From an uncultured Candidatus Saccharibacteria bacterium (GTDB lineage: Bacteria > Patescibacteriota > Saccharimonadia > Saccharimonadales > CAZLTB01), in NCBI GenBank assembly GCA_964562505.1, contig CAZLTB010000004.1, positions 1 to 40,811 on the forward strand: 40,811 nt of DNA, in the 5' to 3' direction. The position numbers were made by a program, and so were the translations under genes. The notes beneath the pieces are model-generated. The model did no database searches, was not told where the DNA came from, and saw only the letters and a list, made by a program, of their open reading frames with translations. This document shows positions 8,583-29,089 of the stretch, one piece after another (positions within the stretch are counted from its first letter, which is position 1; each line of letters opens with the position of its first letter).

Positions 8583-9191
8583 ATGTCTAGACAGCCAAAA
8601 CTACGCACACTTACAAACACACTGCCTTATGTTCTTGCTGTCGGTGGTCTAATCGGAATGTTATCAGCTGCCATACTTACCATTGAAAAATTTTCATTGC
8701 TTAAAAATCCTCATCAAGCTCTAAATTGCGATCTAAATCCGATAATTGCTTGTGGCTCAGTAATCAATACACATCAAGCAAGTGCGTTCGGCTTCCCGAA
8801 TCCTATCATTGGCTTGGTTGGTTTCAGTATCGTACTTACTGTTGGCATGGCCCTCCTAGCTGGTGCTAATTTCAAGCGATGGTTTTGGCTTGGCCTAGAG
8901 GCGGGAGCTTTCTTTGGAGCTATCTTTATAACTTGGCTACAATTTCAGACCATTTTTCGTATTGGCGCCCTGTGCCCCTACTGTATGGCCGTCTGGTCAG
9001 TTACCATCCCTATATTTTTATACACTACGCTCTATAATTTACGCGAGAGACACTTGGCCACGCCGACTCGACTAAAGCGTGCTGTGAATTTTCTAGATCG
9101 ACACCACGGAGATGTACTCATCAGCTGGTATCTCATAATCATTGCTGTTATTCTCCAGCACTTTTGGTATTACTGGTCTACATTGGTATGA
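8583..9191 (+). CDS. Vitamin K epoxide reductase (VKOR) family disulfide-formation protein
   Basis: CDLNPIIACGSV loop cysteines, FGFPN, CPYC active site; start ATG 8583. Confidence 0.92.
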   Translation: MSRQPKLRTLTNTLPYVLAVGGLIGMLSAAILTIEKFSLLKNPHQALNCDLNPIIACGSVINTHQASAFGFPNPIIGLVGFSIVLTVGMALLAGANFKRWFWLGLEAGAFFGAIFITWLQFQTIFRIGALCPYCMAVWSVTIPIFLYTTLYNLRERHLATPTRLKRAVNFLDRHHGDVLISWYLIIIAVILQHFWYYWSTLV

Positions 9192-9209
9192 AATATGTAT
9201 TCAACCCCC

Positions 9210-9238
9210 TTGAGCTAATCTGTTTAGACTGATATAGT
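9210..9238 (+). promoter_or_regulatory. Putative atp operon promoter TTGAGC-17-TATAGT
   Basis: Hexamers at 9210-9215 and 9233-9238 with TGn extension. Confidence 0.55.
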
Positions 9239-9248
9239 TAATCCAGGA

Positions 9249-9554
9249 ATGAGGAAAGCCGCCGCCAAGAAGACGACGTCTATTGAAGACATGGAACGCT
9301 CCATGGCTGTGATGGCTGCACGCCAGGATTTTCTGAATGCAGCTCTCAATATGAGCTGGCAATTGGCTCTGACAATCTTGGTACCTGTATTCATTGGTAC
9401 TAAACTAGATGCTCACTTTCATAGCTCTCCATCTTATACGTTAGCATCACTAGTCATAGCTGTAGCTCTGGCGGTAGCGGTGGTCGCCAAAACACTTAAA
9501 GGAGTTGCAAAGAATCAAGCCGAAGACAAAGATAAGGAGAAGTCTACAGAATGA
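9249..9554 (+). CDS. atpI: ATP synthase protein I (AtpZ/gene 1 type, 2 TM)
   Basis: Two TM helices, G..LD..F motif, first gene of atp operon. Confidence 0.75.
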   Translation: MRKAAAKKTTSIEDMERSMAVMAARQDFLNAALNMSWQLALTILVPVFIGTKLDAHFHSSPSYTLASLVIAVALAVAVVAKTLKGVAKNQAEDKDKEKSTE

Positions 9555-10378
9555 TGAACTTGTTTAGCCTGGTGGCGACTGAGTCTGGCCCCAGCGTACA
9601 CATTGCGCCTGGTGGGCTTTTTGAATTGAACGGGTTCACTGTAACCAATTCGATGGTTTTTGCCTGGGTTTGTTCCCTGTTTCTTATTGGCCTGTTTGCA
9701 ATCATAGCTAAACGTATGACGATGAGACCCAAAGGCGGGTTTACGCAGATTGTTGAGGTCGGGACAGAATTTATCGTCGGTGTGGTCGAAGGCAGTCTGG
9801 GAGACCGAGCCAAAGCCGTACAGTATGCACCTTACTTTGCGACGATATTTTTCTTTGTAGCATTTAGTAACATACTTGGACTATTACCGGGAGTTGGCGA
9901 GGCTTTTACTTATAATGGAACACCTGTTTTCAGGGCCTTTACAGCGGACCTTAACGGCACGCTTGCCGCAGCAGTAATCTCAATGGTTTTGATTCAATAT
10001 TTTGCTATTCGCGAATCAGAACCAGTGCGGCATTTGCGCCATTATTTTGCTGGTAAACTTTGGAATCCGCTCACTTATGTTGTCGGCCTCTACGAAGTAT
10101 TCAACGAGCTTATCAGGGTTTTTAGCTTAGCACTTCGATTGTTCCTTAACATTGCCATTGGTGAAATTATTATTTCGGTTTTTGCCTATCTTGGTAAATT
10201 CGCTGCGCCCATAACTGCCTTTCCGTTTTTGATTCTGGAACTAGGTGTCTGTTTATTACAGGCTTATATTTTTGTTATGCTGTCCGTTACTTACCTTTCA
10301 TTAGCAGTAAAGCACGGTCACGACGACGCTGAAGCGCTGGAGTCAACCGCTAAGAATGTTGAGGCCCAGGTATCATGA
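9551..10378 (+). CDS. atpB: ATP synthase Fo subunit a
   Basis: TADLN, SLALRLFLNI with essential Arg, LQAYIFVML. Confidence 0.96.
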   Translation: MMNLFSLVATESGPSVHIAPGGLFELNGFTVTNSMVFAWVCSLFLIGLFAIIAKRMTMRPKGGFTQIVEVGTEFIVGVVEGSLGDRAKAVQYAPYFATIFFFVAFSNILGLLPGVGEAFTYNGTPVFRAFTADLNGTLAAAVISMVLIQYFAIRESEPVRHLRHYFAGKLWNPLTYVVGLYEVFNELIRVFSLALRLFLNIAIGEIIISVFAYLGKFAAPITAFPFLILELGVCLLQAYIFVMLSVTYLSLAVKHGHDDAEALESTAKNVEAQVS

Positions 10379-10422
10379 ATGTGACTATATCAATTAATAA
10401 CGTAAATTAAGGGAGATAAAGC

Positions 10423-10656
10423 ATGTTTTATTTAGGAGAACTAACAGGTAACGTAGAGGTCATCGGTAAAGGCATCATGCTTGGTGCCGGCATGATAGGC
10501 CCAGGCATCGGTGTTGGCCTGATCGGTAACGCTTTTATGAATGCCGTCGGCCGAAACCCAGAATCAGCAAAATTCCTAGGCCAGATCCTGGTGTTCGTTG
10601 CTATCGTTGAGCTTATGGCGCTACTAGTGTTCGCTTCACTTTTCATCATCAAATAA
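10423..10656 (+). CDS. atpE: ATP synthase Fo subunit c (H+-type signature)
   Basis: GxGxG helix, GRNP loop, Glu in IVELM; lacks the Q...ES/T Na+ signature. Confidence 0.96.
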   Translation: MFYLGELTGNVEVIGKGIMLGAGMIGPGIGVGLIGNAFMNAVGRNPESAKFLGQILVFVAIVELMALLVFASLFIIK

Positions 10657-10675
10657 ATCGGAGCAAAGGACGTAC

Positions 10676-11209
10676 ATGGTTCAGTTCATTTTTGCTGCAG
10701 AAGAGGCTCAAACTTCAGGTATTGGTGCATTGGGTATTAGCCCAGGCGCATTTATCATACAGTTACTTACTTTTCTAATAGTTTTCGCCTTGCTTAAGAA
10801 ATATGCTTTTAAGCCGATTGTTCGCCTGCTCGAAGAGCGCCGTAAAGTTATAGATGAAGGTGTAAAGGCCGGACAGGAGATGGCAAAGGAGCGCGAAAAA
10901 CTTGAGGATGACGTAGCAAAGGTCATGCGCGACACTCGCATAGAAGCAGACCACATAATTGCAACCGGACATAAAGAGGCCCGCGAAATTATACGTGAAG
11001 CTGAGAAGAATGCTCAACGCAAGGTTGACTCAATGATGACGGACGCTGAAGAACGTATTGCTGAGGAATCAGAGCAAGCTCGCAAAAAACTTGAAAAAGA
11101 AATAGTCGGCTTGGTATCCGAAGCAACTGAAGCAATCGTCGGTGAGAAAGTCGACACTAAAAAAGACGCCGAAATTATAGAAAAAGCTTTGAAGGGTCGT
11201 AATAAATGA
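10676..11209 (+). CDS. atpF: ATP synthase Fo subunit b
   Basis: TM, KPI..LEERR, long charged helix. Confidence 0.95.
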   Translation: MVQFIFAAEEAQTSGIGALGISPGAFIIQLLTFLIVFALLKKYAFKPIVRLLEERRKVIDEGVKAGQEMAKEREKLEDDVAKVMRDTRIEADHIIATGHKEAREIIREAEKNAQRKVDSMMTDAEERIAEESEQARKKLEKEIVGLVSEATEAIVGEKVDTKKDAEIIEKALKGRNK

Positions 11210-11607
11210 TTCCGAGAAGTGACCTTGCGACAATATTGGGCGAACGTACTTTACATGTTGAGGATGTTCGCACACTTGCCGGAGCTATTGCTGCTTATTT
11301 GCTTGAAGAACGACGGACGCATGATCTCGAGTCACTAATCCGAGATATTATGCAATATAGAATTGATCACGGCATAGTTGAGGTTGATGTAGTTAGTGCT
11401 CACGAATTACCTGAGCACATAATTGCTGATGTCAAAGATATTTTAAAGCGAGATTATCCTCACGCTAAAGAGACTGAAATTGATACTGACATCAAGCCCG
11501 AGGTGATTGGCGGTGTGCGCATCGAATTGCCGAACGAGCAGCTTGATATGACCGTTAAAGCCAAGCTCGATACTTTTAAGCGACTGAGTAACGGAGGTGC
11601 TGCATGA
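11206..11607 (+). CDS. atpH: ATP synthase F1 subunit delta (short form)
   Basis: [25 protein letters not shown]; operon position. Confidence 0.9.
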
Positions 11608-13178
11608 GCCCCAAAGACATCTCCATAAAGGACTTATCAGATGAAATCCGGGCAGCCATCAATGAATTAAAAGCTCGTCCCGAAATTGAAAATACAGGTG
11701 TTGTTACTCGCATTGGCGACGGTGTGGTCTGGATATACGGCCTAACCAAAGCTGGCTATAACGAGATGCTTGAAATCACTGCAACCGACGGCACGGCAAT
11801 TACAGCATTTGCTTTTAACCTAGGCGAAGATGAGATTGGCGCTGTGCTTCTAGGCGATGACACACTGGTTAAGGCAGGCGCAACGGTCAAGCTAACTGGC
11901 AAAGTGCTTGAAGTGCCGGTGGGTCCTCAGCTTGTTGGAAGGGTTGTCGATCCATTGGGTCGTCCGCTTGACGGAAAAGGCGCTGTTAAGACAACAAAAA
12001 CTGCTCGTGTGGAACGTACTGCACCAGGTGTATTAGATAGAAAAAGCGTGCACGAGCCGTTGATGACGGGCATTACCGCAATTGACGCTATGGTGCCGAT
12101 TGGCCGAGGGCAGCGTGAGCTTATCATTGGTGATCGCCAGACCGGTAAGACGGCAGTAACGGTCGATACTATGATTAATCAACAGCGACAGAACTCAGGC
12201 GTAATAAATATTTACGTGGCTGTTGGCCAAAAGCTTAGTAAAGTTGCACGGTTAGTTGAGCGGTTGAAGCGCGAAGGCGTTATGGAGCAAACCATCGTGG
12301 TTGCTACTAGTGCTGCCGATCCAGCCAGCCTTCAATATCTAGCACCTTACGCCGGCTGTACAATGGGTGAATATTTTCGTGATAATAAACAGCACGCTCT
12401 GATTATCTATGACGATCTAACTAAGCACGCTGCAGCTTATCGACAGATGTCTTTGTTGCTTCGCCGCCCGCCCGGGCGTGAAGCTTATCCTGGTGATGTT
12501 TTCTATCTGCACTCCCGCCTGCTTGAGCGCGCGGCAAAGCTCAGCGATGAGCTTGGAGCTGGCTCTCTCACTGCTCTGCCGATAATTGAAACCCAGGCTG
12601 GTGACATTAGCGCCTACATTCCAACCAACGTGATCTCGATAACTGACGGCCAGATTTTCATGGAAACTGATTTGTTCTACCAGGGTATCCGACCAGCTAT
12701 TTCAGTCGGGCTATCCGTGTCACGTGTAGGTGGTAATGCTCAGACCAAAGCTGTAAAGAGTGTGGCTAAATCGCTTCGTATTGACTTAGCTCAGTTCCGC
12801 GAGCTAGCCGCCTTTAGCCAGTTTTCGACTGATCTCGACGCTGAAACTAGACAGCGAATTGAGCGTGGTCAACGTCTGACGGAACTGTTAAAGCAACCGC
12901 AATATAGTCCACTATCTATTTGGCAAATGTACGCCACTCTATTGGCGGCAACCGAAGGTGCTTTTGACACAGTACCTCTCGATAAGGCCAAGTTGGCAGA
13001 AGCTAATCTATTACGCGAGCTCAAGCACGATCATGGCAAAGTTGTTGAGAATATTAACTCTGGTGATGAGCCGGATGACAAGACCAAGAAAATGATTGTC
13101 GACCTTGCAAAGAAGATTGCCCATTCCTACAAACCGGAAGAAGCTAAGTCAACGGGAGCGCAAAAGACTAATGGCTAA
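11604..13178 (+). CDS. atpA: ATP synthase F1 subunit alpha
   Basis: [29 protein letters not shown]. Confidence 0.99.
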
Positions 13179-18413: not shown

Positions 18414-21400
18414 CTAGATCTTACCTGCTAACAGATCGTTTTCGAATGACTGTATGCCTTGATAGTTGTCAGAATATCTGGAAGTATCGGGAAAATTGAG
18501 CTCTATAATGTGCTGCCAAGCCGCAATTATGAGTTTGCGTAGGCGCTCTAGATTGGCAACATCAGCGTCCAGTTCTAGGCCGAGTTGTTTGGGTGTTTCG
18601 GCTTCTACGTAAAGCATCTGCATGGATATGTTCCGGGATTTCTCAAAACGCCCACTTTCTTGCACCAGAACGGCATAAAACAGCAATTGAGTACGATGGC
18701 GCCAAGCTTTGACCGCCTTAGTTTGGTCCCCTGTGGTGAAGCTGTGTAATGGCTTACCTGTTTTATAGTCACTGATTAATAAGTCACTTCCCAGCTTGTC
18801 GATGCGGTCGACCTTGCCGTTAATTCGTGCGGCACCGAGCGCTATGTTGCTCAACTGCTGTTCGGCCAGTCCGCCTTTCTTAATGGCGAGATGGCCTTCG
18901 CTCAGAAGCTTAGGCAACAATTCTTGGCCGCGGACAGAAAAGCGTTCATAATCCAACGGCGACAGATGCTCATCGCCAAGTGCTGCCTCAAAACGATCGA
19001 GTACCGTACCCGGCTCAAGCTTTGCGGTGTTGACTAGTCGCTGGGCCGTCTCCAGAGCAGCATGAATTGCAACGCCGTAACTGCCAACAGCCGAGCGCGG
19101 AGTTGGTATGCGCAGTAATTGGCGCTCCAAAAAGCTAGTCGGGCCAGCCTCGGCCACGTTTAAGAAGTCAATGAGTGCCGTAGGACTGAGCGAATACTTC
19201 TCTAACCTATCGCTGAGTAGCGCTTTTTCATTTTTGGTACTTAGCCGTGGCCAGTGTAGGTCGCCCTCTAGAACTTCAAGTGGCTTATCTGGCGGCTTTT
19301 TGATAACGGTTAGGGGCAAAGCAGCTAGTAGGGGCGTTGGTAGTAGCTCGTTGCCGTTTGTATCTGTGAAGTAGCTAGTTGCAATGAAGGTCCGTTTCGC
19401 CCGGGTGGCGGCTACGTAAAGTAAGCGGATGTAGTCGTCGTCCTTCTCGCCATAGGATTGTAGCTGCAGGTTTGCCGGTGAGGACCGACCACCGACCCGG
19501 GGCCGCCACATGCTCTCTACCCCGTCTACCACAAAGACGTGCTCAAACTCCAAGCCCTTGGCCTTATAGACAGTCAGCAGCTGCACGGCTTGTTCGCCAC
19601 TCATAAACCATGACTCATCGGCGATTACTCGCTTCGTACTTAGGTTAAGCTCTATAAATCTTACGAAATCTGCCAATGTGGATTCATCGTGCGAAAATTC
19701 CTGGACTAATCCCCTTAGTAGTTCAATTGCCGATAAAGTCTCAAGGTATTCGCTGGTTACTGGACGCATACTCAGGTAGTACTTACGGAATGGGCTGGTT
19801 AGGTATTTGCCTGGGTAAAGACCCAAGATATTTTCCATAACTACTGGCAATGGTTGGTCGTGGCTACCGCGCGCTAGCTCTATCAGCCAGTTGCCTATTG
19901 CATTCAATTGCTTGTCGCTGTGGCTAAGTAGACTATCCAGCCAATCACGCGAGCTGTAATTAGCAGTAGCTAGCTTCCATAGACTATTTGGGCTAAGTTG
20001 CCACATGGGGTGGCGTACCAGCTGGGAAATCCCGACATTAACGGCTGGCTTATCGCCTTGAGCGATGGCCACAGCCAGGCCTGCAATCAAGTATGCGTGC
20101 TTGACGGCTTCGTGTTCCAGTACATTGCTACGCTGGTCATAGCGTACCAGCAAACCTTTGCGCAATAGGATACTAGCCAGTTGGCGCAGACTATCATGTT
20201 TACGAGCTAAAACAGCAATGTCTCGCTCACCACTATTCCAAAGCTCCTTAATGCGGCTGGCAAGTGCTGTCTGCTGATGTTCGCGGGTTGGATAACTCAA
20301 ATGACCGATATCTATTTTGCCTTTTGGTGCGTTTTGAGCGCGTAAGTTCTTTGTAATTGATGACTCGCGTTTTATTAGCCGATCTTTAGCTTGTTCAATG
20401 ATTTGTTTGGATGTATCGAGAACGGCCTGCGCTGAACGGTAATTTTCTTCCAAGACGACTAATTTGGTGTCAGGATAGCTGCGACGAAAGCTGAGCATAT
20501 TGTTCAACTCTGCCCCATTAAAGGCAAAAATCGACTGATCATCGTCACCTACGGCCATCAGATTCGGTCTGTTATTGGCGGCGAAGTGATCGGCCACTTG
20601 GTGCGCCAAGCGCAGCTGAGCAGCATTTGTGTCTTGGAACTCGTCTATCAAGACATACAGGAATCGTTCTTGGATGTCGGCGCGCATGTCTGGCCTCTTC
20701 TGAAGCTGGTCCAAGACCTCAATTAACATGTCGGAGTAATCATAATAGCCGCGCCTATGAAGGCGATCACGATACTGTTCGTAGACATCAGATACAGCCA
20801 GCCACCAATTGTTGCGTTTACGCTCAACAAACATGCCCTTCTTGCTATCAATAGTCTGGACCCAACGCTTCTTCCACTTGCCTGTTTCGATGGTTTTACT
20901 GGTTGAGCTGTCTTGTTCAATGGCATATTCCAGGCTTTCGCGCATAATTGTGTCGAGCGGCAACAAGAGGCTATCTTTTCCTAGTTTCTGCTGTGGTATC
21001 TGGGCAATGCCTTCACGCAAGCTGTCTAGTTTTTGAGCGCTCAAGACTGGGGTCAAAAGGTCAACAAGACTTTTTTCAATTTTATCGATATAGACGATAT
21101 TGCGTTTAATAACTTCCCGCAGCTGCCCGGGCGTTAAACCAGCTTCTTTAGCCAGCTTAAGGGCATTTCTTACGTCGTCTATTGCGGTAAAACTGCCGGC
21201 AAAAGTGCTCGCCAACGGATTAGTTTGTGGCAATGTACCAAGGATACTTTGAATGATTTCCAGCTGTACGGCATCTGGTGCCACGCTCAACCTGGCTCCC
21301 TCCCAGAAATAATCCGGATATTGATTCATAATTTCGGCCGCAAAGCTGTGGAATGTACGAACCACGACATGTCGCGAAGCAGGTCCAACCAGCTCGTACA

Positions 21401-21623
21401 GGCGTTCACGCATATTAGTAGCGGCTTTATTAGTGAATGTTAAACATAGAATACTGCTGGCGTCGGTGTCGGTCTTTTGCAAGATATTAGCCACTCGCAG
21501 ACTGAGCAGCTGTGTCTTACCGGTGCCAGGTCCAGCAATTACTAACAACGGTCCATCAATCATATCAACGGCTTTGCGCTGGGATGGGTTCAGCTCTTTG
21601 TAGGCTTTTTCAAAACTTTTCAC
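18414..21623 (-). CDS. UvrD/PcrA-family helicase fused to C-terminal PD-(D/E)XK nuclease (AddA/RecB-like)
   Basis: AGPGTGKT, DEFQD, VGDDDQSIF, KAKGLEF, YVAATRA, GKVDRID..DYKTG. Confidence 0.93.
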   Translation of the reverse strand: MKSFEKAYKELNPSQRKAVDMIDGPLLVIAGPGTGKTQLLSLRVANILQKTDTDASSILCLTFTNKAATNMRERLYELVGPASRHVVVRTFHSFAAEIMNQYPDYFWEGARLSVAPDAVQLEIIQSILGTLPQTNPLASTFAGSFTAIDDVRNALKLAKEAGLTPGQLREVIKRNIVYIDKIEKSLVDLLTPVLSAQKLDSLREGIAQIPQQKLGKDSLLLPLDTIMRESLEYAIEQDSSTSKTIETGKWKKRWVQTIDSKKGMFVERKRNNWWLAVSDVYEQYRDRLHRRGYYDYSDMLIEVLDQLQKRPDMRADIQERFLYVLIDEFQDTNAAQLRLAHQVADHFAANNRPNLMAVGDDDQSIFAFNGAELNNMLSFRRSYPDTKLVVLEENYRSAQAVLDTSKQIIEQAKDRLIKRESSITKNLRAQNAPKGKIDIGHLSYPTREHQQTALASRIKELWNSGERDIAVLARKHDSLRQLASILLRKGLLVRYDQRSNVLEHEAVKHAYLIAGLAVAIAQGDKPAVNVGISQLVRHPMWQLSPNSLWKLATANYSSRDWLDSLLSHSDKQLNAIGNWLIELARGSHDQPLPVVMENILGLYPGKYLTSPFRKYYLSMRPVTSEYLETLSAIELLRGLVQEFSHDESTLADFVRFIELNLSTKRVIADESWFMSGEQAVQLLTVYKAKGLEFEHVFVVDGVESMWRPRVGGRSSPANLQLQSYGEKDDDYIRLLYVAATRAKRTFIATSYFTDTNGNELLPTPLLAALPLTVIKKPPDKPLEVLEGDLHWPRLSTKNEKALLSDRLEKYSLSPTALIDFLNVAEAGPTSFLERQLLRIPTPRSAVGSYGVAIHAALETAQRLVNTAKLEPGTVLDRFEAALGDEHLSPLDYERFSVRGQELLPKLLSEGHLAIKKGGLAEQQLSNIALGAARINGKVDRIDKLGSDLLISDYKTGKPLHSFTTGDQTKAVKAWRHRTQLLFYAVLVQESGRFEKSRNISMQMLYVEAETPKQLGLELDADVANLERLRKLIIAAWQHIIELNFPDTSRYSDNYQGIQSFENDLLAGKI

Positions 21624-21707: not shown

Positions 21708-22253
21708 ATGGACGTTTTTACTATGGAAGTACTTCACAAACTCGAGAAGCAAATGGAGAATATTTTTAAAGATTTACCAAAACTTTCTGATACTTCTAAA
21801 GAGGCTCTTGCTGATTTCTGGCCTTGGCTGGCATTGATCGCTGGTATACTTCAGCTTTTAGTAGCCTGGGGTCTCTATGACTTGTCGCACCGGTTTGATG
21901 TAATCAGGGATCAATTAAATTCGACTTCATTGTACTTAACTGGTCACTCAATTGGACTAAGTGCTACTGATAAAGCATTAATTTATTTAGGAGTTATTGT
22001 GTTGGTGGTTGATGCGATAATTCTTTTAATGGCCTATCCCAAACTCAGAAAACGTGCCAAAAGAGGCTGGGATCTTATTTTCCTAGGTATGTTAATCAAC
22101 GTGGTATATGCAGTATTGCAACTATTTACTAAAGAGCGTGGTCCGTTCAACTTTTTTGCCAGTCTGATCGGTTCGTTTATCGGCTTTTATTTATTGTTTC
22201 AGGTCCGCGAAAAGTTCGTGGGAAAGAGCAAACCAGACAGTACCGGAAATTGA
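21708..22253 (+). CDS. Hypothetical 4-TM membrane protein
   Basis: Four hydrophobic segments; start may be a downstream Met. Confidence 0.75.
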   Translation: MDVFTMEVLHKLEKQMENIFKDLPKLSDTSKEALADFWPWLALIAGILQLLVAWGLYDLSHRFDVIRDQLNSTSLYLTGHSIGLSATDKALIYLGVIVLVVDAIILLMAYPKLRKRAKRGWDLIFLGMLINVVYAVLQLFTKERGPFNFFASLIGSFIGFYLLFQVREKFVGKSKPDSTGN

Positions 22254-22362
22254 TTCAGTATTGAAATTTGGCTAAATATGTACTATGGTTGCGATACTAG
22301 CTTTATGGCTAGTCTAAAAATAACTAGAGCCAAATTGCAAACTATCATACAATAGTAAATGT

Positions 22363-22378
22363 TGTGAACTATTTAACT
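22363..22378. promoter_or_regulatory. Candidate Crp-type operator upstream of the crp-family gene (autoregulation)
   Basis: TGTGA-actatt-TAACT, 8/10 match to TGTGA-N6-TCACA, just downstream of -10 TACAAT 22348-22353. Confidence 0.45.
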
Positions 22379-22386
22379 TACAGTCT

Positions 22387-23049
22387 ATGAGTAAATACCA
22401 GGACTTTATCGCCGGTTATCATGTGAAGAAATTCCGAAAAGGCGAGATTATTTTAGTTCAAGGTGAAGTTCCGCCCCATGCTTTTGTATTAAAGAAAGGT
22501 ATTGTCAAAACTTACAACCTGACCACCCAAGGTGAAGAAAAACCAATAAGCTTTGATCTGGTGGGCGAAATATTCCCTGTAGCCTGGACTTTCAACAAAA
22601 TTCGCTACGCACCCTATTATTACGAAGCATTTACTGACTCTGAACTATATTGTGTGCCCAAGGACGATTATCACCACTTCATGAAAACCAGTCCTGAGGC
22701 CACTTATGATATGTTTAATAAATTTGTAGACCGTTATGTCAATTTTCAGATGCGTGTCAACGCACTTGAACAATCGAAGGCCGCTACCAAAATACTGAAC
22801 ACGATCCACTTTTTATGTCTTCACTTCGGACGTGATCTAAAGAAAAACTTGGTCCAAATACAGCTACCCCTTACTCAGCAGGACTTGGCCAATTTCATGG
22901 GGTTGACTCGGGAAACTACTGGCATTGAGCTCAAAAAACTGCAAAAACGCGGCGTGCTAACATATCGCAGACAAAATTATTTGGTTAAGACGGATCGACT
23001 TAATGAGCTACTTGACGAAGATTACGACCAAGGCCGCATTCTTAAGTGA
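22387..23049 (+). CDS. Crp/Fnr family transcriptional regulator
   Basis: cNMP-fold N-terminus (KGEII, G.VK, GEIF), HTH LTQQDLANFMGLTRET. Confidence 0.95.
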   Translation: MSKYQDFIAGYHVKKFRKGEIILVQGEVPPHAFVLKKGIVKTYNLTTQGEEKPISFDLVGEIFPVAWTFNKIRYAPYYYEAFTDSELYCVPKDDYHHFMKTSPEATYDMFNKFVDRYVNFQMRVNALEQSKAATKILNTIHFLCLHFGRDLKKNLVQIQLPLTQQDLANFMGLTRETTGIELKKLQKRGVLTYRRQNYLVKTDRLNELLDEDYDQGRILK

Positions 23050-23459
23050 TAAGCGCCAACTCTTTCTTTTCTCTCTTTAGTTCCATCTAGATTCTTTGTC
23101 ACTAAGTGATTGACTAAAGCGGACAAATCCTCGGGTGTGGCATGGGCCTTAACTATGTACTTATATGCCCCTAGCTGCATAGCCTTCTCCACCTCGGAAT
23201 CGTTGCCTATATTACTGAGGATAACAACTTTAACGTCTGGATGTCTGTTTAAGAGGTCATACTCCTGGAGAAATTGCAGACCGTTCATTCTAGGCATCAG
23301 TAAATCAAGCAAGATAATGTCGGGCTCTTCGGTCTCTGCTTGCTCGAGAGCTTCTTCTCCGTCTTTGGCTGATGTTGTGTGGTGGCCGGCTTTTTTGAGG
23401 ATAAGACTGTATGCATCGTTTAATACTTTATCATCCTCAACAATCAATATTTTGGCCAT
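23022..23459 (-). CDS. Single-domain response regulator
   Basis: ILIVEDD, LLDLLMPRMNG, ILSN, YIVK. Confidence 0.93.
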   Translation of the reverse strand: MAKILIVEDDKVLNDAYSLILKKAGHHTTSAKDGEEALEQAETEEPDIILLDLLMPRMNGLQFLQEYDLLNRHPDVKVVILSNIGNDSEVEKAMQLGAYKYIVKAHATPEDLSALVNHLVTKNLDGTKERKERVGAYHLRMRPWS

Positions 23460-23519
23460 CCTAATTCCTCTTTTATGTCTAGTAAAGCTTTAGTATATTA
23501 GCACTTGCCGTTAACCTTA

Positions 23520-23535
23520 TATGAGATAATTCACT
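23520..23535. promoter_or_regulatory. Candidate Crp-type operator upstream of the response regulator
   Basis: TATGA-gataat-TCACT (8/10), centred about 30 bp upstream of minus-strand TATACT at 23492-23497. Confidence 0.5.
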
Positions 23536-23563
23536 TTCCCAAAAATTTTTGTGAGACATCTGT

Positions 23564-24688
23564 TTAATGGGTTCTGATTGGAAGCGACAAGTAGAACGTT
23601 GTTCCTTGATCTTTGTTGCTTTCAAACCAGATCTTGCCACCCATGCTATCTACCACTTCTTTGGACATATATAGTCCCAGCCCTGTGCCAGTTGGCTCGG
23701 CTTGTTTGGCATTGTCGGTTCTAAAGAATTTAGTAAAAATTTTGCCGCGGTCAGCTGCAGAAATGCCGTAACCGGTATCGCTAACACTTATCAAAAGCTC
23801 ATGTTTTGTTTCTTTTAATGCTATCTGTATTTTTCCCTTCTCGGGGGTGTATTTGATCGCATTAGATAATAGATTTGTTAGTACCTCAGTAGTCAGAACC
23901 TGGTCTATAATTGCTTTCACGGTTTTTCTAGGTAAGTCCAACTTTATTTTGATGTCTTTGGCCTTTGCTTGAGGCTGGAGTTCTTGTCCTAAACTTTTTA
24001 TGAGCTCAGTAATGTCCGTTTCCTTAAGCGTAATGTCAATCTTACCAGCCTCGATGCGTGTAGTATCAAGCAGAATGTTTATTAGATCACTCATTCGGTC
24101 AATAGAATTGAATATAATTTTCATAAATTGTTGTTGGCCCTTAGTGAGCTTGCCCTGATAGCCCGACGCCAATAGATGGGCATAGGTGTTGATAGAAGTT
24201 AAAGGTGTCCGTAGCTGGTGAGATGCAATTGATATGAACTCACTTTTCATACGGTCAACTTCATTCTCTTTGGTCACGTCACGAAAGACTTCAATAGCAC
24301 CTATGGGCCTGGAGTCTAAGACAATTGGCGAGACGGTTACCGAAACTGGTAAGGCCCCTTCTTTCTTAGTCAAATAATTAATTCGCTCTGACACCGGTTT
24401 GCCGGTTAACAAGGCTTTGGTGATGGGTCTGTTGAGAGCGCTAATAACTTGTCCGTGATTATCCTGGGCTACGATAACTCTAGGAAACCACTGACCAATG
24501 ACTTCCTCTTTCTTATAACCTAGTAAGTCCAGAGCAGCTTGGTTTATCTGCTGGACTTTACCCTCGCTATTAGTGGCAATTGCCCCCTCCCCGATACTCA
24601 GAAACAATGCATCGGCCCTGGCTTGCTCGCGGGCTGTTTTTCGGGATGTGGCCCGTAGTTTTTTTTCTAATTTATCGGAATCTTCCAT
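23564..24688 (-). CDS. Cytoplasmic PAS-domain histidine kinase
   Basis: PAS (IGEGAIATN..INQAA), SHQLRTPLT, NLLSNAIKY, DTGYG, GTGLGL; no TM. Confidence 0.95.
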   Translation of the reverse strand: MEDSDKLEKKLRATSRKTAREQARADALFLSIGEGAIATNSEGKVQQINQAALDLLGYKKEEVIGQWFPRVIVAQDNHGQVISALNRPITKALLTGKPVSERINYLTKKEGALPVSVTVSPIVLDSRPIGAIEVFRDVTKENEVDRMKSEFISIASHQLRTPLTSINTYAHLLASGYQGKLTKGQQQFMKIIFNSIDRMSDLINILLDTTRIEAGKIDITLKETDITELIKSLGQELQPQAKAKDIKIKLDLPRKTVKAIIDQVLTTEVLTNLLSNAIKYTPEKGKIQIALKETKHELLISVSDTGYGISAADRGKIFTKFFRTDNAKQAEPTGTGLGLYMSKEVVDSMGGKIWFESNKDQGTTFYLSLPIRTH

Positions 24689-24701
24689 GGGAGTTCCTTA
24701 T

Positions 24702-24989
24702 TTATGAATGCCCAGAGTTTCTATACACTTCCTTATTAGTTTTTGTGAGAGATAACAAACGGTCAGTGTATTCCTGGACTACAGTAACGTCTTCAGTAAG
24801 CAGAGACACGGCAATTCTTATCCAATCGATTAATTGCTCTAAATCTTTGGCTTGGAGTTCGGTCGGGTGTTTGTTGATGTGATTTTCAATTTGACGGTCA
24901 ATGAAGCGCTTTGCAGTCGGGCCAAGGTAATCGGTGCTAACGTCAATAACCGATTCATACAAACTGGATGGTTTCTTTGCTCCAGCCAT
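24702..24989 (-). CDS. Small helical hypothetical protein (YLGP motif)
   Basis: 95 aa; 5-nt and 13-nt gaps to its neighbours; GAGG SD. Confidence 0.8.
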   Translation of the reverse strand: MAGAKKPSSLYESVIDVSTDYLGPTAKRFIDRQIENHINKHPTELQAKDLEQLIDWIRIAVSLLTEDVTVVQEYTDRLLSLTKTNKEVYRNSGHS

Positions 24990-24994
24990 CTCTG

Positions 24995-25924
24995 TTATAC
25001 CTCTTCAATTTTTTTGAGTTTTTTTGCACCAATGGCAATTAGGCCGTAACCTACAGCTATCAATAATAACAACAGGTATAAAACAAACAGCAAAATCTTA
25101 AGCGAAAGGCTACCTAAGTGCGATGCCCACGAATTGAGAAAGCGAATAACGATCAGCGATATGATCACTGCTAGTAGTCCGCTCGATAGATAGCCGAGAG
25201 ACTGTCTGTATATGGTACCTTTAACTCTCAGGCGATATTGCTGTATGTAGTAGGCGGCTCCTATGCCAAAGAACCACACAAAAAGATATGGTATCAGTAT
25301 TGTTACGACCAACAGAGGATCTGATAGATAATAGGTGGCTTTAGCTGCGGCAGCATTCGGAACACGACGAATTGGGCTTGTCAAGGCAGCGTACATATAA
25401 AGGGTAGAAAAAATAACAAAAACAAAGCCAATCAACAACTCACCAATGGAATATGGTGCTGTTTTTTTCTTGACCGTGGCATATAAGCCCGCGGCGCCAA
25501 TGTAAATAGCATAGAAAGCAACGAGGAAAAATAAAAGAGTTACATAATTAGTGACTATAACTGTTTTAGCTGTTAGATCTTGTCGAGTCGCGGCAATATA
25601 GTTAAGTGCCGTAGAGAGTATTGAGGTTATAGGCAGACTTATTGCTAGATACATAAGCCCGCGCGATAATTTCATCAGATGCTTGCCATCTTTTGTGTCG
25701 CTAATAACATCCGCGTACTTCTGGAATTGAACAAAACCATAAAATGCCACAAACCAAATACCTATAACGGGTAAGACTACCGTTAAGCTTAGTGCTCTGG
25801 CTTCGTTGGCAGTCAAGCTGTACCGAGTTAGTACTGAGGCGTCTGGTGGTATGGCGAATGTCAGGATTAAATATATTGCTGCTAGTATAAGAAATAGAAC
25901 GTAGTATTTGTTAAATTTTTTCAC
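24995..25924 (-). CDS. 8-TM membrane protein with internal 2x4-TM repeat
   Basis: Eight hydrophobic segments; the two halves align by eye; GGGAG SD and TATAAT at 25962-25967. Confidence 0.85.
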   Translation of the reverse strand: MKKFNKYYVLFLILAAIYLILTFAIPPDASVLTRYSLTANEARALSLTVVLPVIGIWFVAFYGFVQFQKYADVISDTKDGKHLMKLSRGLMYLAISLPITSILSTALNYIAATRQDLTAKTVIVTNYVTLLFFLVAFYAIYIGAAGLYATVKKKTAPYSIGELLIGFVFVIFSTLYMYAALTSPIRRVPNAAAAKATYYLSDPLLVVTILIPYLFVWFFGIGAAYYIQQYRLRVKGTIYRQSLGYLSSGLLAVIISLIVIRFLNSWASHLGSLSLKILLFVLYLLLLLIAVGYGLIAIGAKKLKKIEEV

Positions 25925-26007
25925 TGCTCTCCCTGCCCGGTTTTATTTGTAATCAATAAACATTATAGCCTAAAAAACCGTGTAGCAATATCTGCGTCAG
26001 CAATCAA

Positions 26008-26036
26008 CTAAACGCAGCTCAATAAGCTGCGTTTAG
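26008..26036 (-). terminator. Stem-loop terminator after the 50-aa gene
   Basis: Perfect 12-bp stem CTAAACGCAGCT/AGCTGCGTTTAG, 5-nt loop; weak U tail. Confidence 0.7.
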
Positions 26037-26063
26037 CCCGGGATAATCTACTGTTTAAAAGTT

Positions 26064-26216
26064 CTAAGCAGCCATGTCGTGACGTAATTTACGCCAGCGT
26101 CTTGCCTGTAGTTTCTCAGCCTTGAGTTCCCAATGACTCGAAATGTCGTCATAGAAGTCGTCAAAGCTTAGATCTTTGACTGATGTTGGTTTGGTTAGTA
26201 TTTTGAATTTTTTCAT
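26064..26216 (-). CDS. Unannotated 50-aa protein MKKFKILTKPTSVKDLSFDDFYDDISSHWELKAEKLQARRWRKLRHDMAA
   Basis: Translated by hand; GGAGG 8 nt before ATG, upstream -10 and Crp box, downstream hairpin. Confidence 0.8.
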   Translation of the reverse strand: MKKFKILTKPTSVKDLSFDDFYDDISSHWELKAEKLQARRWRKLRHDMAA

Positions 26217-26272
26217 ATACCATGCCTCCCCTTAGTGGTGTCCTTAGCATAAACAGCATTTAGTTAAATAGC

Positions 26273-26288
26273 TGTAATTTTTCTCACA
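26273..26288. promoter_or_regulatory. Crp-type operator at class II position
   Basis: TGTAA-tttttc-TCACA (9/10); centre 26280.5 is -41.5 relative to +1 predicted from minus-strand TATGCT 26246-26251. Confidence 0.7.
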
Positions 26289-26346
26289 AGAAGCAAGTAG
26301 CAGTTTGCTGGCTTATCCTCTGCTTCGAAATCGCCTGATCAGGTAG

Positions 26347-26907
26347 TCAAGTTTCTCGTGGTTGTACAACTGCCCAAACCAATCCGGCAATAATAAAAAA
26401 ACAAGCGCTGTAAAAAGCAATGACACTGTAAAGTTCTATTTTATATCCCTCGTTGAAGTTGACTACAAAATATCTTACCGCAGCGAATGAGTAGGCTGCC
26501 ACGGATAAGGCCGCTGTAGCGAAAGGAGCACTCCTCGTGTTTAATACAGCAGAAACAACAATCGGTATCGCAAACAGCGCAACGCCCCTGCTTGCCATGC
26601 CACGCTCTGCATAGACCATGAAGGCTGCGACTCCTATATCCATCAATATCAGTGCGTACGCCAGAATCTTGTAGTATTGGTCTCTTCTTGGGGTGCTGCG
26701 GCTGGCGTACCAAACGATTGTGGTAACGACTAGCATAGTAGCAGCAACTGTCCAACGCTGTAATACGGCATCAGGCGTTATTAATTTCCAGGCATCACCA
26801 ATAATAATGCTAAGGGCGAACACTAGTGCATAGTAAAAATGTACCCGGGATATTCTTAAAATGCTTAGTTGCAAGGAATTTAAGGATTTTTGATTTTTAG
26901 TTGCCAT
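26347..26907 (-). CDS. Stand-alone membrane protein homologous to the sensor domain of the kinase at 1283-2554
   Basis: Shared RV..YY, YY.........D...A.F.VY...G..SR...L.AIPI, AA.S..AY, I.FY motifs. Confidence 0.85.
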   Translation of the reverse strand: MATKNQKSLNSLQLSILRISRVHFYYALVFALSIIIGDAWKLITPDAVLQRWTVAATMLVVTTIVWYASRSTPRRDQYYKILAYALILMDIGVAAFMVYAERGMASRGVALFAIPIVVSAVLNTRSAPFATAALSVAAYSFAAVRYFVVNFNEGYKIELYSVIAFYSACFFIIAGLVWAVVQPRET

Positions 26908-26981
26908 ACAATCATTGGTAATTCAAACATACCGCTTATGTCTCTGTCAACTTTGAGCAAGATGGTCAAATTGAAGGAAAT

Positions 26982-27010
26982 AAAGAAAAAGAAGCCTTTT
27001 TAGGGGCTCC
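26982..27010 (-). terminator. Intrinsic terminator GGAGCC-CCTAAAAA-GGCTTC-TTTTTCTTT
   Basis: 6-bp stem with one G-U pair and a 9-nt U-rich tail on the minus strand. Confidence 0.7.
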
Positions 27011-27346: not shown

Positions 27347-27500
27347 ATGGCTGGGGAGGAGGGATTCGCTTTGTTCGATGAATCTCGCAAAGTGCCGGGG
27401 ACAGCCACCGGCTATCCCGTTCGAATCCCCTTCACTATAATTCTCCATAGCTCCGGCACGAAACCGGGGCAACAGAGAATGGCTGGGGAGGAGGGATTCG
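27347..27500 (-). repeat. tRNA-linked element: 22-bp direct repeats (tRNA-Gln 3' end) flanking 110 bp of structured sequence
   Basis: ATGGCTGGGGAGGAGGGATTCG at 27347-27368 and 27479-27500. Confidence 0.9.
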
Positions 27501-27554
27501 AACCCCCGAATGCCAGTACCAAAAACTGGTGCCTTACCACTTGGCCACTCCCCA
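27480..27554 (-). tRNA. tRNA-Gln (anticodon TTG), encoded CCA
   Basis: TGGGGAGTGGCCAAGTGGTAAGGCACCAGT-TTTTGGT-ACTGGCATTCGGGGGTTCGAATCCCTCCTCCCCAGCCA folds as a cloverleaf. Confidence 0.97.
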
Positions 27555-28228: not shown

Positions 28229-29089
28229 GTGCATGTTGTGGAGCCCCACCAATTCAAAAAACTGCCAAAAACAAGGTCTAGAAAGCCTTTATGGCTACTT
28301 CTAGCTTTGATCATCATAGGTGCTGGTGTCTTTGTGTTTATAGTTCTAGACGGCAAACAATCATCGACAAATAGTGTCACACCAGCCCAAACCACTGCTT
28401 CGCACCCCCCTCAATCTGCCCAAAACAAGCCGCTTAGACAATTTACTGGCGAACAATTTAAAGAGCTTTACCGAAGCGTTGCATATCCAAATACACAGCA
28501 ATTTAGCGATCCCCCATCAATTACAGGGAACACAGTCGCAGACAATAGGATTCGTCAAATGGCGGAAGCTCGAGGCTATCACTTGACCAGCATTCCGGTA
28601 CAGGCAATCGTAAAAATTAACGAACCGCTTTTGAATGGAGACGATCTACTGCAACCACTTGCTGCCCAGGCCTGGTCTGACATTAAAGCGTCCGCTAAAA
28701 AAGCCGGTTACCCCCTGACTTTAATTTCAGCCTATCGATCGCCGGAATATCAACGAAACTTATTCACCCAGCGTTTATATGCTCATGGAGTGACGGCCGA
28801 TCAGGTAGCTGCCGGTAAAGCTGACGCAGCAGTCCAAGATACGCTAAGTCACGCTGCTGTCCCTGGCTATTCACGTCACCATACCGGCTATACAGTTGAT
28901 ATGTGGTGTGACGATAAAAGTACCAGTTTTTTGACCAGTAGCTGTTATCGCTGGATAAGTGTCAGTAATTACCAGAATGCTAAAGAGAATGGCTGGATTC
29001 CCAGCTATCCTGCAGGTACTAGCGACCAAGGCCCTGAACCTGAACCATGGGAATATGTCTGGGTCGGCCGATCCAAATTAACACAATAA
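28229..29089 (+). CDS. Membrane-anchored M15B (VanY-like) carboxypeptidase
   Basis: TM, ISAYRS, PGYSRHHTG..VD, EPWE variant of EPWH. Confidence 0.85.
   Translation: MHVVEPHQFKKLPKTRSRKPLWLLLALIIIGAGVFVFIVLDGKQSSTNSVTPAQTTASHPPQSAQNKPLRQFTGEQFKELYRSVAYPNTQQFSDPPSITGNTVADNRIRQMAEARGYHLTSIPVQAIVKINEPLLNGDDLLQPLAAQAWSDIKASAKKAGYPLTLISAYRSPEYQRNLFTQRLYAHGVTADQVAAGKADAAVQDTLSHAAVPGYSRHHTGYTVDMWCDDKSTSFLTSSCYRWISVSNYQNAKENGWIPSYPAGTSDQGPEPEPWEYVWVGRSKLTQ

Follow-up and report, generated by a model that had tools for sequence, protein, structure and literature searches.

How might a histidine kinase with no membrane segment of its own be informed by a membrane protein, and through what would it then act? 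The question is raised by four close-packed minus-strand genes at 23022-25924 of the window (by which we mean the whole stretch of DNA analysed here, 40,811 nucleotides (nt) of contig CAZLTB010000004.1, assembly GCA_964562505.1, from an uncultured Candidatus Saccharibacteria bacterium). The genes encode a membrane protein (TM8), a protein of 95 amino acids (aa; p95), a soluble PAS-HisKA-HATPase_c histidine kinase and a single-domain receiver (Table 1). We consider it probable that they constitute a two-component system with its sensor divided among three polypeptides (TM8, a STAC-domain protein and the kinase). TM8 would provide the input, as a membrane sensor; p95, a free STAC domain, would dock on conserved cytoplasmic loops and the C-terminal tail of TM8; the soluble PAS-DHp-CA kinase would read the state of the TM8-p95 pair; and it would phosphorylate the single-domain receiver encoded beside it. 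An earlier note on this DNA, made by a model from the letters and a list of open reading frames (ORFs), had already proposed a split sensor in which the membrane protein signals through a 'YLGP' protein to the kinase. The conservation of the unit and the predicted docking of p95 on TM8 support this in part, although the adaptor very probably belongs to a family that is already known.

Conservation of the four-gene string

Our comparison set comprised 61 genomes of the same order (Saccharimonadales; one genome per family, the source genome, G000, included). From 18 other p95-bearing genomes, each of a different family, we took 19 loci, and labelled their ORFs by BLASTP (compared genomes are numbered G... 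and compared loci L...). p95 was matched in 19 of the 61 genomes and the TM8 profile likewise in 19, with both present in 17. TM8 lies directly before p95 in 17 of the 19 loci (the two are not next door in L036 and L038), and the PAS kinase lies directly after p95 in 18; in the nineteenth, L032, an 831-aa STAS-CHASE-PAS kinase precedes a TM8-p95-receiver row. The receiver follows directly after the kinase (in L032, after p95) in 14 of the 19 loci, and one further locus stops at a contig edge. The junction of TM8 with p95 spans -44 to +10 nt and that of p95 with the kinase -47 to +28 nt; in the window these gaps measure 5 nt (24990-24994) and 13 nt (24689-24701), the very spacings that the earlier note had read, and the spacer between kinase and receiver is 104 nt. 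Genes beyond the four-gene core vary from locus to locus, and the four-gene string is also found in another order of the class (L045). Recurrence of the TM8-p95-kinase string in 17 of 19 loci is far beyond chance, and the comparison of gene neighbourhoods that had been suggested finds the four-gene core kept across many Saccharimonadales families. As judged from gene order, the view that TM8, p95, the soluble PAS kinase and the receiver are one conserved unit is supported.

Within the string, p95 is paired most faithfully with the kinase, more so than with TM8: a kinase accompanies p95 in 19 of 19 loci, and TM8 does so in 17. TM8 homologues, for their part, adjoin a histidine kinase in all 21 loci examined, also with other kinase types. 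By their alignments, the kinase and the receiver keep all catalytic residues of a classical two-component system (HisKA plus receiver). Among 18 kinase sequences (alignment A5), H157, N272, D304, G306, G308, G334, G336 and G338 are invariant, which include the phospho-acceptor His157 and the glycines of the ATP lid, and among 15 receivers (A6) the same holds for E8, D9, D52 and K104. The best NCBIfam models for the kinase are WalK, PnpS and PhoR, all of them below their cut-offs. A hydropathy scan shows no transmembrane (TM) segment in the kinase and the receiver matches Pfam Response_reg alone, in agreement with what had been said of both from the letters. The source genome holds six HisKA kinases and nine receiver domains, eight of the nine in frames of at most 156 aa and one in a 416-aa frame; its signalling output seems to run almost wholly through single-domain receivers. 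As a separate observation, the p95-kinase pair at L036 (G005; 8832-12783) lies directly 3' of a row of prepilin-like genes (with an N-terminal methylation motif), with no TM8 there.

p95, TM8 and their predicted contact

The STAC family, to which we assign p95 with high confidence as a stand-alone domain, was reportedly published by Korycinski et al. in 2015. Four sources on it are cited here (PMC4834066, PMC5715377, PMC9100948 and PMC13022988). The founding STAC structure is Af1502 of Archaeoglobus fulgidus; stand-alone STAC proteins have 60-90 residues, carry the motif LGPx(x)A where helices 1 and 2 join, and are encoded next to Af1503-like receptors whose sole cytosolic part is a HAMP domain, while as a domain STAC connects SLC5 membrane domains with two-component modules in CbrA (PMC4834066). 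The fold consists of two alpha-hairpins with a joining loop of typically nine residues (PMC5715377), and the function of STAC is described as still unknown (PMC13022988, PMC9100948, PMC5715377).

In an alignment of 20 p95 sequences (A1), G23, R28, F29, H37, P42, W56, T65 and L81 are invariant, and L22 and P24 are conserved in at least 90%; the family motif, D-Y-L-G-P-A-A-x-R-F, appears in the window protein as L22-G23-P24-T25-A26, which is LGPxA. Homologues in the loci have 75-103 aa. A HMMER scan of 1.84 billion representatives gave 281 p95-family clusters at E<=1e-3, and 149 of the best 150 are 63-124 aa long; the remaining one, P0285, has 314 aa in four tandem LGPxA (STAC-like) units with no other domain, no Pfam match and uninformative cluster names. 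(One source labels a member of P0285 'antitoxin component of RelBE/YafQ-DinJ', which looks like a mislabel.) Among 8000 scored candidates, the search for fused p95 forms in longer proteins gave one protein at E 0.55, which is weak evidence that there are none.

The AlphaFold2 model of p95 is all-helical (mean confidence, pLDDT, 86.7), and its segments (10-21, LGP, 25-38, a loop of 8 residues at 39-46, 47-64 and 68-91) fit two hairpins. Its best structural match is Af1502 (5a1q_B), rank 1 of 48,161 chains, with an rmsd (root mean square deviation) of 2.6 A over 68 of 68 residues and a Z score of 7.6, which is within the range common for small helical models. In Foldseek, Af1502 ranks 2-3 (probability 0.84-0.89), and there is no PDB match at E<=0.001 for the model of either p95 or TM8. 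Gene context points the same way. The p95 profile also has matches in 9 of 301 genomes of other classes of the phylum, where relatives come immediately behind a dCache-HAMP gene and ahead of CheW and two receivers, or behind a 2TM-HAMP gene and ahead of a gene for a dCache methyl-accepting chemotaxis protein (MCP); a place after output-less HAMP receptors and before CheW or an MCP is the Af1503/Af1502 arrangement, and therefore supports the STAC identity.

Several points count against this assignment. Besides the commonplace Z score, DSSP assigns residues 10-38 of the model to one continuous helix running through LGP, and the A1 profile has no match to 5a1q at E<=10; according to the STAC authors, Af1502 itself escapes sequence searches (PMC4834066). 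In the other family searches, Pfam and NCBIfam hold no match for p95, and member-by-member Pfam searches at E<=1 gave scattered single matches. An Atlas search gave unnamed Saccharimonadota clusters, with an unconfirmed lead to DUF8082 (PF26309) at 0.80. A profile search of the PDB with A1 returned weak matches to ETV6 SAM-repeat fusions (E 0.004), which we rejected as inflated by tandem copies. The LGPxA motif and the top match to Af1502 nevertheless make p95 very probably a member of the STAC family, and the 'YLGP' adaptor is accordingly not the undescribed protein for which it was first taken.

TM8 shows 8-9 hydrophobic peaks in a hydropathy scan, and its AlphaFold2 model (pLDDT 89.4; predicted template-modelling score, pTM, 0.87) has eight long helices, arranged as one N-terminal helix and a seven-helix bundle. 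Conservation among 17 sequences (A2) is concentrated in two loops (I74...G80, and V-K-G-x-I-Y around G236 and Y239) and in a C-terminal tail, G-A-K-x-L-K-x-I-E-E-V. By the positive-inside rule, a basic N-terminus lies inside; given this topology, both conserved loops and the C-terminal tail would be cytoplasmic. TM8 has no Pfam or NCBIfam match: the 17 members searched against Pfam gave single-member matches at E>=0.014 only, none of them to SSF/SLC5, and no transporter family was matched. In the structural search, the best 50 matches are 49 chains of G-protein-coupled receptors (GPCRs) and LYCHOS, the latter matched on its 7TM-receptor-like domain; they cover residues ~29-309 at an rmsd of 4-7 A and Z of 8.1-11.0, values below the noise bar for helical bundles that may reflect a common arrangement. 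The best Foldseek E value is 0.015, and the Atlas offers a family lead at 0.83 (HisKA_7TM, on 10% of the members of one cluster). We treat the likeness of the model to 7TM receptors as a lead and not as a classification. TM8 stands for an unnamed membrane family of 8 helices whose members are found with kinases of four architectures.

We predicted the TM8-p95 complex with each protein given as its family alignment, in three runs and with three controls. The pair scored 0.61 (0.62, 0.61 and 0.61 in the individual runs) and the best control 0.00; the score mark is reached by 58 of 80 solved complexes and by 2 of 110 mismatched pairs, a calibration that holds roughly with user-supplied alignments. 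The runs share at least 97% of their contacts, and the pLDDT of the partners is at least 77. On the p95 side the interface comprises residues 19-26, 28-29, 60-61, 63-65 and 70, which form both hairpin tips (at the LGPxA turn and at the L64-T65 turn), and on the TM8 side residues 73-74, 77, 79, 234-239, 241, 302, 305-307 and 309. Interface residues are better conserved than the rest in p95 (0.75 versus 0.45; permutation p ~0.0002) and in TM8 (0.67 versus 0.49; p ~0.003), a comparison that is not fully independent, since the predictor saw the same alignments. The prediction supports a model in which p95 docks by its hairpin tips on the cytoplasmic loops and C-terminal tail of TM8; the complex check that had been suggested thus makes the 95-aa protein a plausible adaptor on the membrane protein.

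In a cryo-electron microscopy preprint on CbrA, the STAC bundle lies beneath the membrane domain, the tips of its third and fourth helices held in a basal pocket, and PAS-DHp-CA follows STAC in the same protein (PMC13022988). CbrA STAC docks by hairpin tips, and the predicted TM8-p95 interface would use the equivalent end of the bundle. TM8 is not an SLC5 protein, and the docking result is therefore unlikely to be a memory of the CbrA structure.

The module order of TM8, STAC and PAS-kinase genes is that of the fused SLC5-STAC-PAS-kinase 'transceptors' CbrA, CrbS and RpuS, and in those systems, as here, the cognate response regulator is encoded nearby (PMC13022988, PMC9100948, PMC5715377). Here, in contrast, the modules are three separate genes, with STAC and PAS kinase in two genes 13 nt apart and not in one polypeptide; TM8 has 8 helices and no SLC5/SSF match, whereas STAC-linked SLC5 domains are said always to have 13 (PMC5715377); and in place of an NtrC- or LuxR-type response regulator there is a bare receiver. 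The second precedent is Af1503/Af1502 of A. fulgidus, in which an output-less HAMP receptor is accompanied by a translationally coupled stand-alone STAC protein, a small (60-90 aa) LGPx(x)A protein encoded directly after an output-less membrane receptor, as here (PMC4834066). Unlike Af1503, TM8 has no HAMP domain and another membrane architecture, and a soluble PAS kinase and a receiver in the same operon provide an explicit output. A looser parallel is PhoR with PhoU and PstSCAB, where the PAS domain of the kinase is informed by a membrane complex via a small helical cytoplasmic go-between; in the present operon, however, the kinase has no membrane anchor, STAC takes the place of PhoU as go-between, and no ABC transporter serves as membrane partner.

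The STAC family, and a stand-alone STAC protein beside an output-less receptor, are thus already known (PMC4834066). As far as the literature was searched, what is new is the partnership of STAC with an unnamed 8-helix membrane family, the full split of membrane part, STAC, PAS kinase and receiver within one operon, its spread in Saccharimonadia, and the specific predicted TM8-p95 interface; the search, on Saccharibacteria signalling and STAC, gave no paper on the operon, and the lists in the founding STAC paper may already include Patescibacteria or an 8-TM partner. As the operon shows, STAC is bound neither to SLC5 nor to HAMP partners. In fused kinases STAC is hard to separate from its neighbours, whereas the split operon would allow binding, stoichiometry and control of the kinase to be taken piece by piece. 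Moreover, in a genome of ~0.8 Mb with six kinases and nine receivers the operon is among few sensory inputs, making it a candidate for reading the surroundings of the cell.

The Crp regulator, s50 and rival readings

Next to the operon stand a convergent Crp/Fnr-family gene and s50, a gene for a small basic protein, and these two form a second, separable module that is often adjacent to the operon. A Crp orthologue lies beside the operon in 10 of the 19 operon-bearing genomes and elsewhere in 6, and contig ends intervene in 3; Crp and s50 are on other contigs or far from the operon in G005, G013, G018, G035, G047 and G056. Crp-family genes are present in 53 of the 61 genomes (a count that includes the unpublished G033), against 19 for the operon. 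s50 is found in 24 of the 61, and in 14 of these a Crp-family gene lies no more than 350 nt away, also where both lie far from the kinase operon. It has no Pfam or NCBIfam match; 12 aligned sequences (A3) describe a conserved basic protein with a C-terminal K-A-E-R-L-Q-x-R-R-W-R-K-L-K-like helix, and a 10-bp inverted repeat lies 3' of the gene in the window.

The Crp gene is the only cNMP_binding gene found in the source genome (one PF00027 match). The best PDB relatives of its product are NtcA and FNR, at E ~1e-10, and the NCBIfam equivalogs (NtcA, Fnr, CRP and FixK) score far below cut-off (45 against 245 for NtcA, 40.5 against 266 for CRP and 43.9 against 228 for Fnr). The phosphate-binding cassette of CRP has the form Gly-Glu ... 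Arg-Ser/Thr, and FNR has an N-terminal cysteine cluster for its Fe-S centre. In an alignment to NtcA, what we take, from CRP numbering, to be the cassette positions are P64-V65 and P76. The 'GE' (60-61) that had been counted as a retained part of the nucleotide pocket lies four residues before the cassette, and that claim does not stand; the missing cAMP-binding RS/RT does, the Arg position being Pro76 here and never Arg in 11 aligned family members (A4). There is no cysteine in the first 85 residues, so that an FNR-type N-terminal cluster is absent. A search of the genome, which is 94% complete, for cyclases of class III alone came up empty. On these residues, the Crp protein is probably not a sensor of cyclic nucleotide monophosphates (cNMPs). 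It has the two-domain build and the CRP-like R-E recognition helix of cAMP-independent Crp/Fnr regulators (NtcA-like), with an invariant T-R-E-T in that helix (A4); it differs from these regulators in scoring below the equivalog cut-offs, in having no N-terminal cysteine cluster, and in its cassette of Pro, Val and Pro.

Crp-type boxes before three genes of the cluster had been reported. The copies before the Crp, receiver and s50 genes are indeed present, but conservation is mainly confined to the one before s50, and the number of TGTGA-N6-TCACA sites with at most 2 mismatches across the window is at chance (16, compared with 17.0 +/- 3.9 expected). Before s50, a box occurs in 5 of 12 upstream regions at <=2 mismatches and in 10 of 12 at <=3 (expected ~0.5 and ~4.7 on the background of the loci); the s50 boxes have the form TGTNA-N6-TCGCA and lie 52-94 nt before the start in 10 of 12 (<=3 mismatches). 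In 3 of 12 loci, that of the window among them, the receiver has such a box (<=2 mismatches) upstream in a comparable position, whereas 1 of 10 Crp genes (that of the window) and 1 of 16 TM8 genes (in another genome) have one. From this pattern, regulation of s50 by Crp appears well supported: s50 is likely a target of the Crp regulator, which probably activates it from a box near -41.5. The box before the Crp start is probably due to chance, and that before the receiver is a possible internal promoter element, through which the regulator perhaps acts on the receiver in some genomes. Given the boxes in 3 of 12 loci, any link between operon and Crp may be transcriptional, from Crp to the receiver, and on sequence grounds we regard this as more likely than a contact between receiver and Crp protein. 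It is the one tie between this module and the operon that sequence evidence speaks for. When the genome was scanned with a weight matrix from eight foreign s50 boxes, the window box ranked 26 of 106 sites at >=11 bits, there was no coherent regulon downstream of the matches, and of 18 sites checked about half fall within ORFs.

Three intergenic Crp-like palindromes in the source genome (C1:66416-66431, C19:3025-3042 and C15:13131-13148) are candidate targets with unclear downstream ORFs; one of them is a perfect TGTGA-N6-TCACA, and one lies 24 nt before a 381-aa gene. The single box before TM8 in 16 loci is a perfect TGTGAGATATCTCACA palindrome in G042 (L034:7055-7070), with its centre 60 nt before the TM8 start, and the same genome has two Crp paralogues beside the operon.

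Our reading of the operon as a split sensor has to be set against evidence that weighs on the other side. Two genomes have p95-kinase-receiver strings without any TM8, namely G005, at 97% completeness, and G050, a single contig at 100% with two such strings, and p95 therefore does not need TM8; conversely, TM8 accompanies a kinase without p95 in G009 (a 6TM_PilS kinase) and G027 (a dCache-HAMP kinase), where the TM8 genes are divergent. Deletion of STAC in CbrA or CrbS is reported to have had no obvious growth phenotype (PMC5715377), and a relay role of STAC is therefore unproven even in the model systems. We infer a STAC-kinase contact by analogy with the fused relatives and from operon order and the 19/19 co-occurrence in loci, and likewise infer that the signal flows from TM8 through p95 to the kinase. 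Were the flow of another kind, STAC might regulate the membrane protein, such that TM8 would be a transporter or channel gated by p95, with the PAS kinase as cytoplasmic sensor of the compound carried; the genes would then share an operon because their coupling to the kinase is physiological and not physical. The STAC authors speculate that the domain regulates substrate flow through the transport domain (PMC9100948, PMC5715377), the CbrA PAS domain is reported to bind histidine (PMC13022988), the kinase here has its own PAS sensor, and the contact that we predict is with TM8; yet p95 pairs with the kinase in 19 of 19 loci versus 17 for TM8, with three further p95 strings that have no TM8, Pfam offers no transporter family for TM8, and among the best 50 structural matches the single transporter is LYCHOS, matched on its 7TM-receptor-like part, all of which leaves this alternative unlikely. 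We give still less credit to p95 as a histidine phosphotransfer (Hpt)-like protein acting between kinase and receiver through His37, the least probable of the readings considered: His37 is invariant in 20 of 20 sequences and the fold is a small helical bundle, but the kinase, being no hybrid and without a receiver domain of its own, needs no Hpt step, a search at a threshold as loose as E<=1 matches none of the 20 members to an Hpt family, the structural search ranks STAC first and not Hpt, and relatives of p95 adjoin HAMP-only receptors, CheW and MCPs.

The limits of the system can be drawn more widely or dissolved altogether. In a single six-gene circuit, of the kind put forward in the earlier note, the phosphorylated receiver would bind the Crp protein as its input, and Crp would drive s50 and other genes. 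Receiver and Crp converge as neighbours in the window and in 8 other loci, where the two genes overlap by up to 28 nt, are up to 47 nt apart or have only s50 between them, and Crp is nearby in one more; the pairing beside the operon in 10 of 19 operon-bearing genomes, a receiver without output domain, and a Crp pocket without cNMP-binding residues, which needs another input, fit such a circuit, as does the fact that in 16 of 17 genomes p95 is accompanied by a close Crp orthologue (E<=1e-90), a count that is circular in that the profile was built from operon-bearing genomes. Against this, Crp and s50 are away from the operon in six operon-bearing genomes, Crp-family genes are far wider in distribution (53 of 61, again with G033, versus 19), Crp pairs more tightly with s50, independently of the operon (14 of 24), and with eight of nine receivers in the genome single-domain the missing output is not special. 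The 28-nt overlap of the convergent Crp and receiver genes (23022-23049) is real in the window, as first described, but it is not conserved: it stems from a C-terminal extension of the receiver that is found in the window protein only (A6). We know of no receiver-Crp complex that could serve as precedent, and give the six-gene circuit little weight. At the other extreme, the genes might be neighbours by descent with no joint work. All compared genomes come from one phylum and are kin, not independent samples, and some flanks (Crp, the 181-aa membrane protein and the UvrD-like helicase) are also syntenic in a subset; nonetheless, flanks vary while across families, in another order and partly in other classes the core keeps its order and its tight or overlapping junctions, TM8 stays beside kinases of three other architectures, and the TM8-p95 docking prediction passed its controls, and we consider inherited synteny very improbable as the whole explanation.

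The split two-component system remains the reading that we favour. A bolder version, which we consider rather unlikely, would make TM8 a true bacterial seven-helix receptor with an extra N-terminal helix, signalling via a free STAC adaptor to a soluble kinase, with the receiver output, in these Saccharibacteria of soil, converging with the cNMP-independent Crp regulator and s50 in the cell's main environment- or host-sensing circuit. If that were true, free STAC proteins would be general connectors that plug output-less sensors (TM8 and HAMP-only receptors) into kinases or chemotaxis arrays.

Surroundings of the operon

The features of the locus are collected in Table 1. The source genome comprises 795 kb in 55 contigs and is 94% complete; the sequencing runs listed for it are four soil-metagenome DNA runs of one study, with no RNA runs. 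A scan of 22200-27000 for sigma-70 promoters and terminators gave chance-level matches only. Synteny with Crp extends, in several relatives, to the helicase and the 181-aa membrane protein (21708-22253).

Table 1. Coordinates of the operon, of the adjacent module and of flanking features, in window positions
Feature	Position	Strand	Details
UvrD-type helicase, C-terminal PD-(D/E)XK nuclease domain (AddA/PcrA-like build)	18414-21623	-	1069 aa
Membrane protein, 181 aa	21708-22253		Flank
Crp-like box, 2 mismatches	22363-22378	.	16 nt before Crp start; seen in 1/10 Crp upstream regions
Crp/Fnr-family regulator	22387-23049	+	220 aa; Pfam cNMP_binding and HTH_Crp_2
Receiver, single-domain (CheY-like)	23022-23459	-	145 aa; Pfam Response_reg only
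Crp-like box, 2 mismatches	23520-23535	.	Kinase-receiver spacer (104 nt); centre 68 nt before receiver start
PAS-HisKA-HATPase_c histidine kinase, soluble	23564-24688	-	374 aa; Pfam
p95, probable stand-alone STAC-domain protein, proposed adaptor	24702-24989	-	95 aa; LGPxA at L22-A26
TM8, membrane protein	24995-25924	-	309 aa; ORF, family without Pfam or NCBIfam match
s50, small basic protein	26064-26216	-	50 aa; upstream of TM8
Crp-like box, 1 mismatch to TGTGA-N6-TCACA	26273-26288	.	Centre 64 nt before s50 start codon
PilS-like 6-TM domain protein, stand-alone	26347-26907	-	186 aa; PF25323 at 7.3e-8; upstream of s50
tRNA-Gln, anticodon ttg	27480-27554	-	Flank
VanY-type D-Ala-D-Ala carboxypeptidase	28229-29089	+	Flank

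The 6-TM protein at 26347-26907 consists of a PilS-like sensor domain only, with no kinase part. It may be a second detached sensor module, and its membership in the system is uncertain. A 423-aa membrane kinase at 1283-2554 on the minus strand has, as its N-terminal region, a paralogue of it (31% identity over 111 aa by tblastn), and that kinase is followed by a bare receiver at 888-1271 on the same strand. In G009 the PilS-like 6-TM domain is fused to the kinase next to the TM8 homologue, and in L021 the stand-alone form lies directly before TM8.

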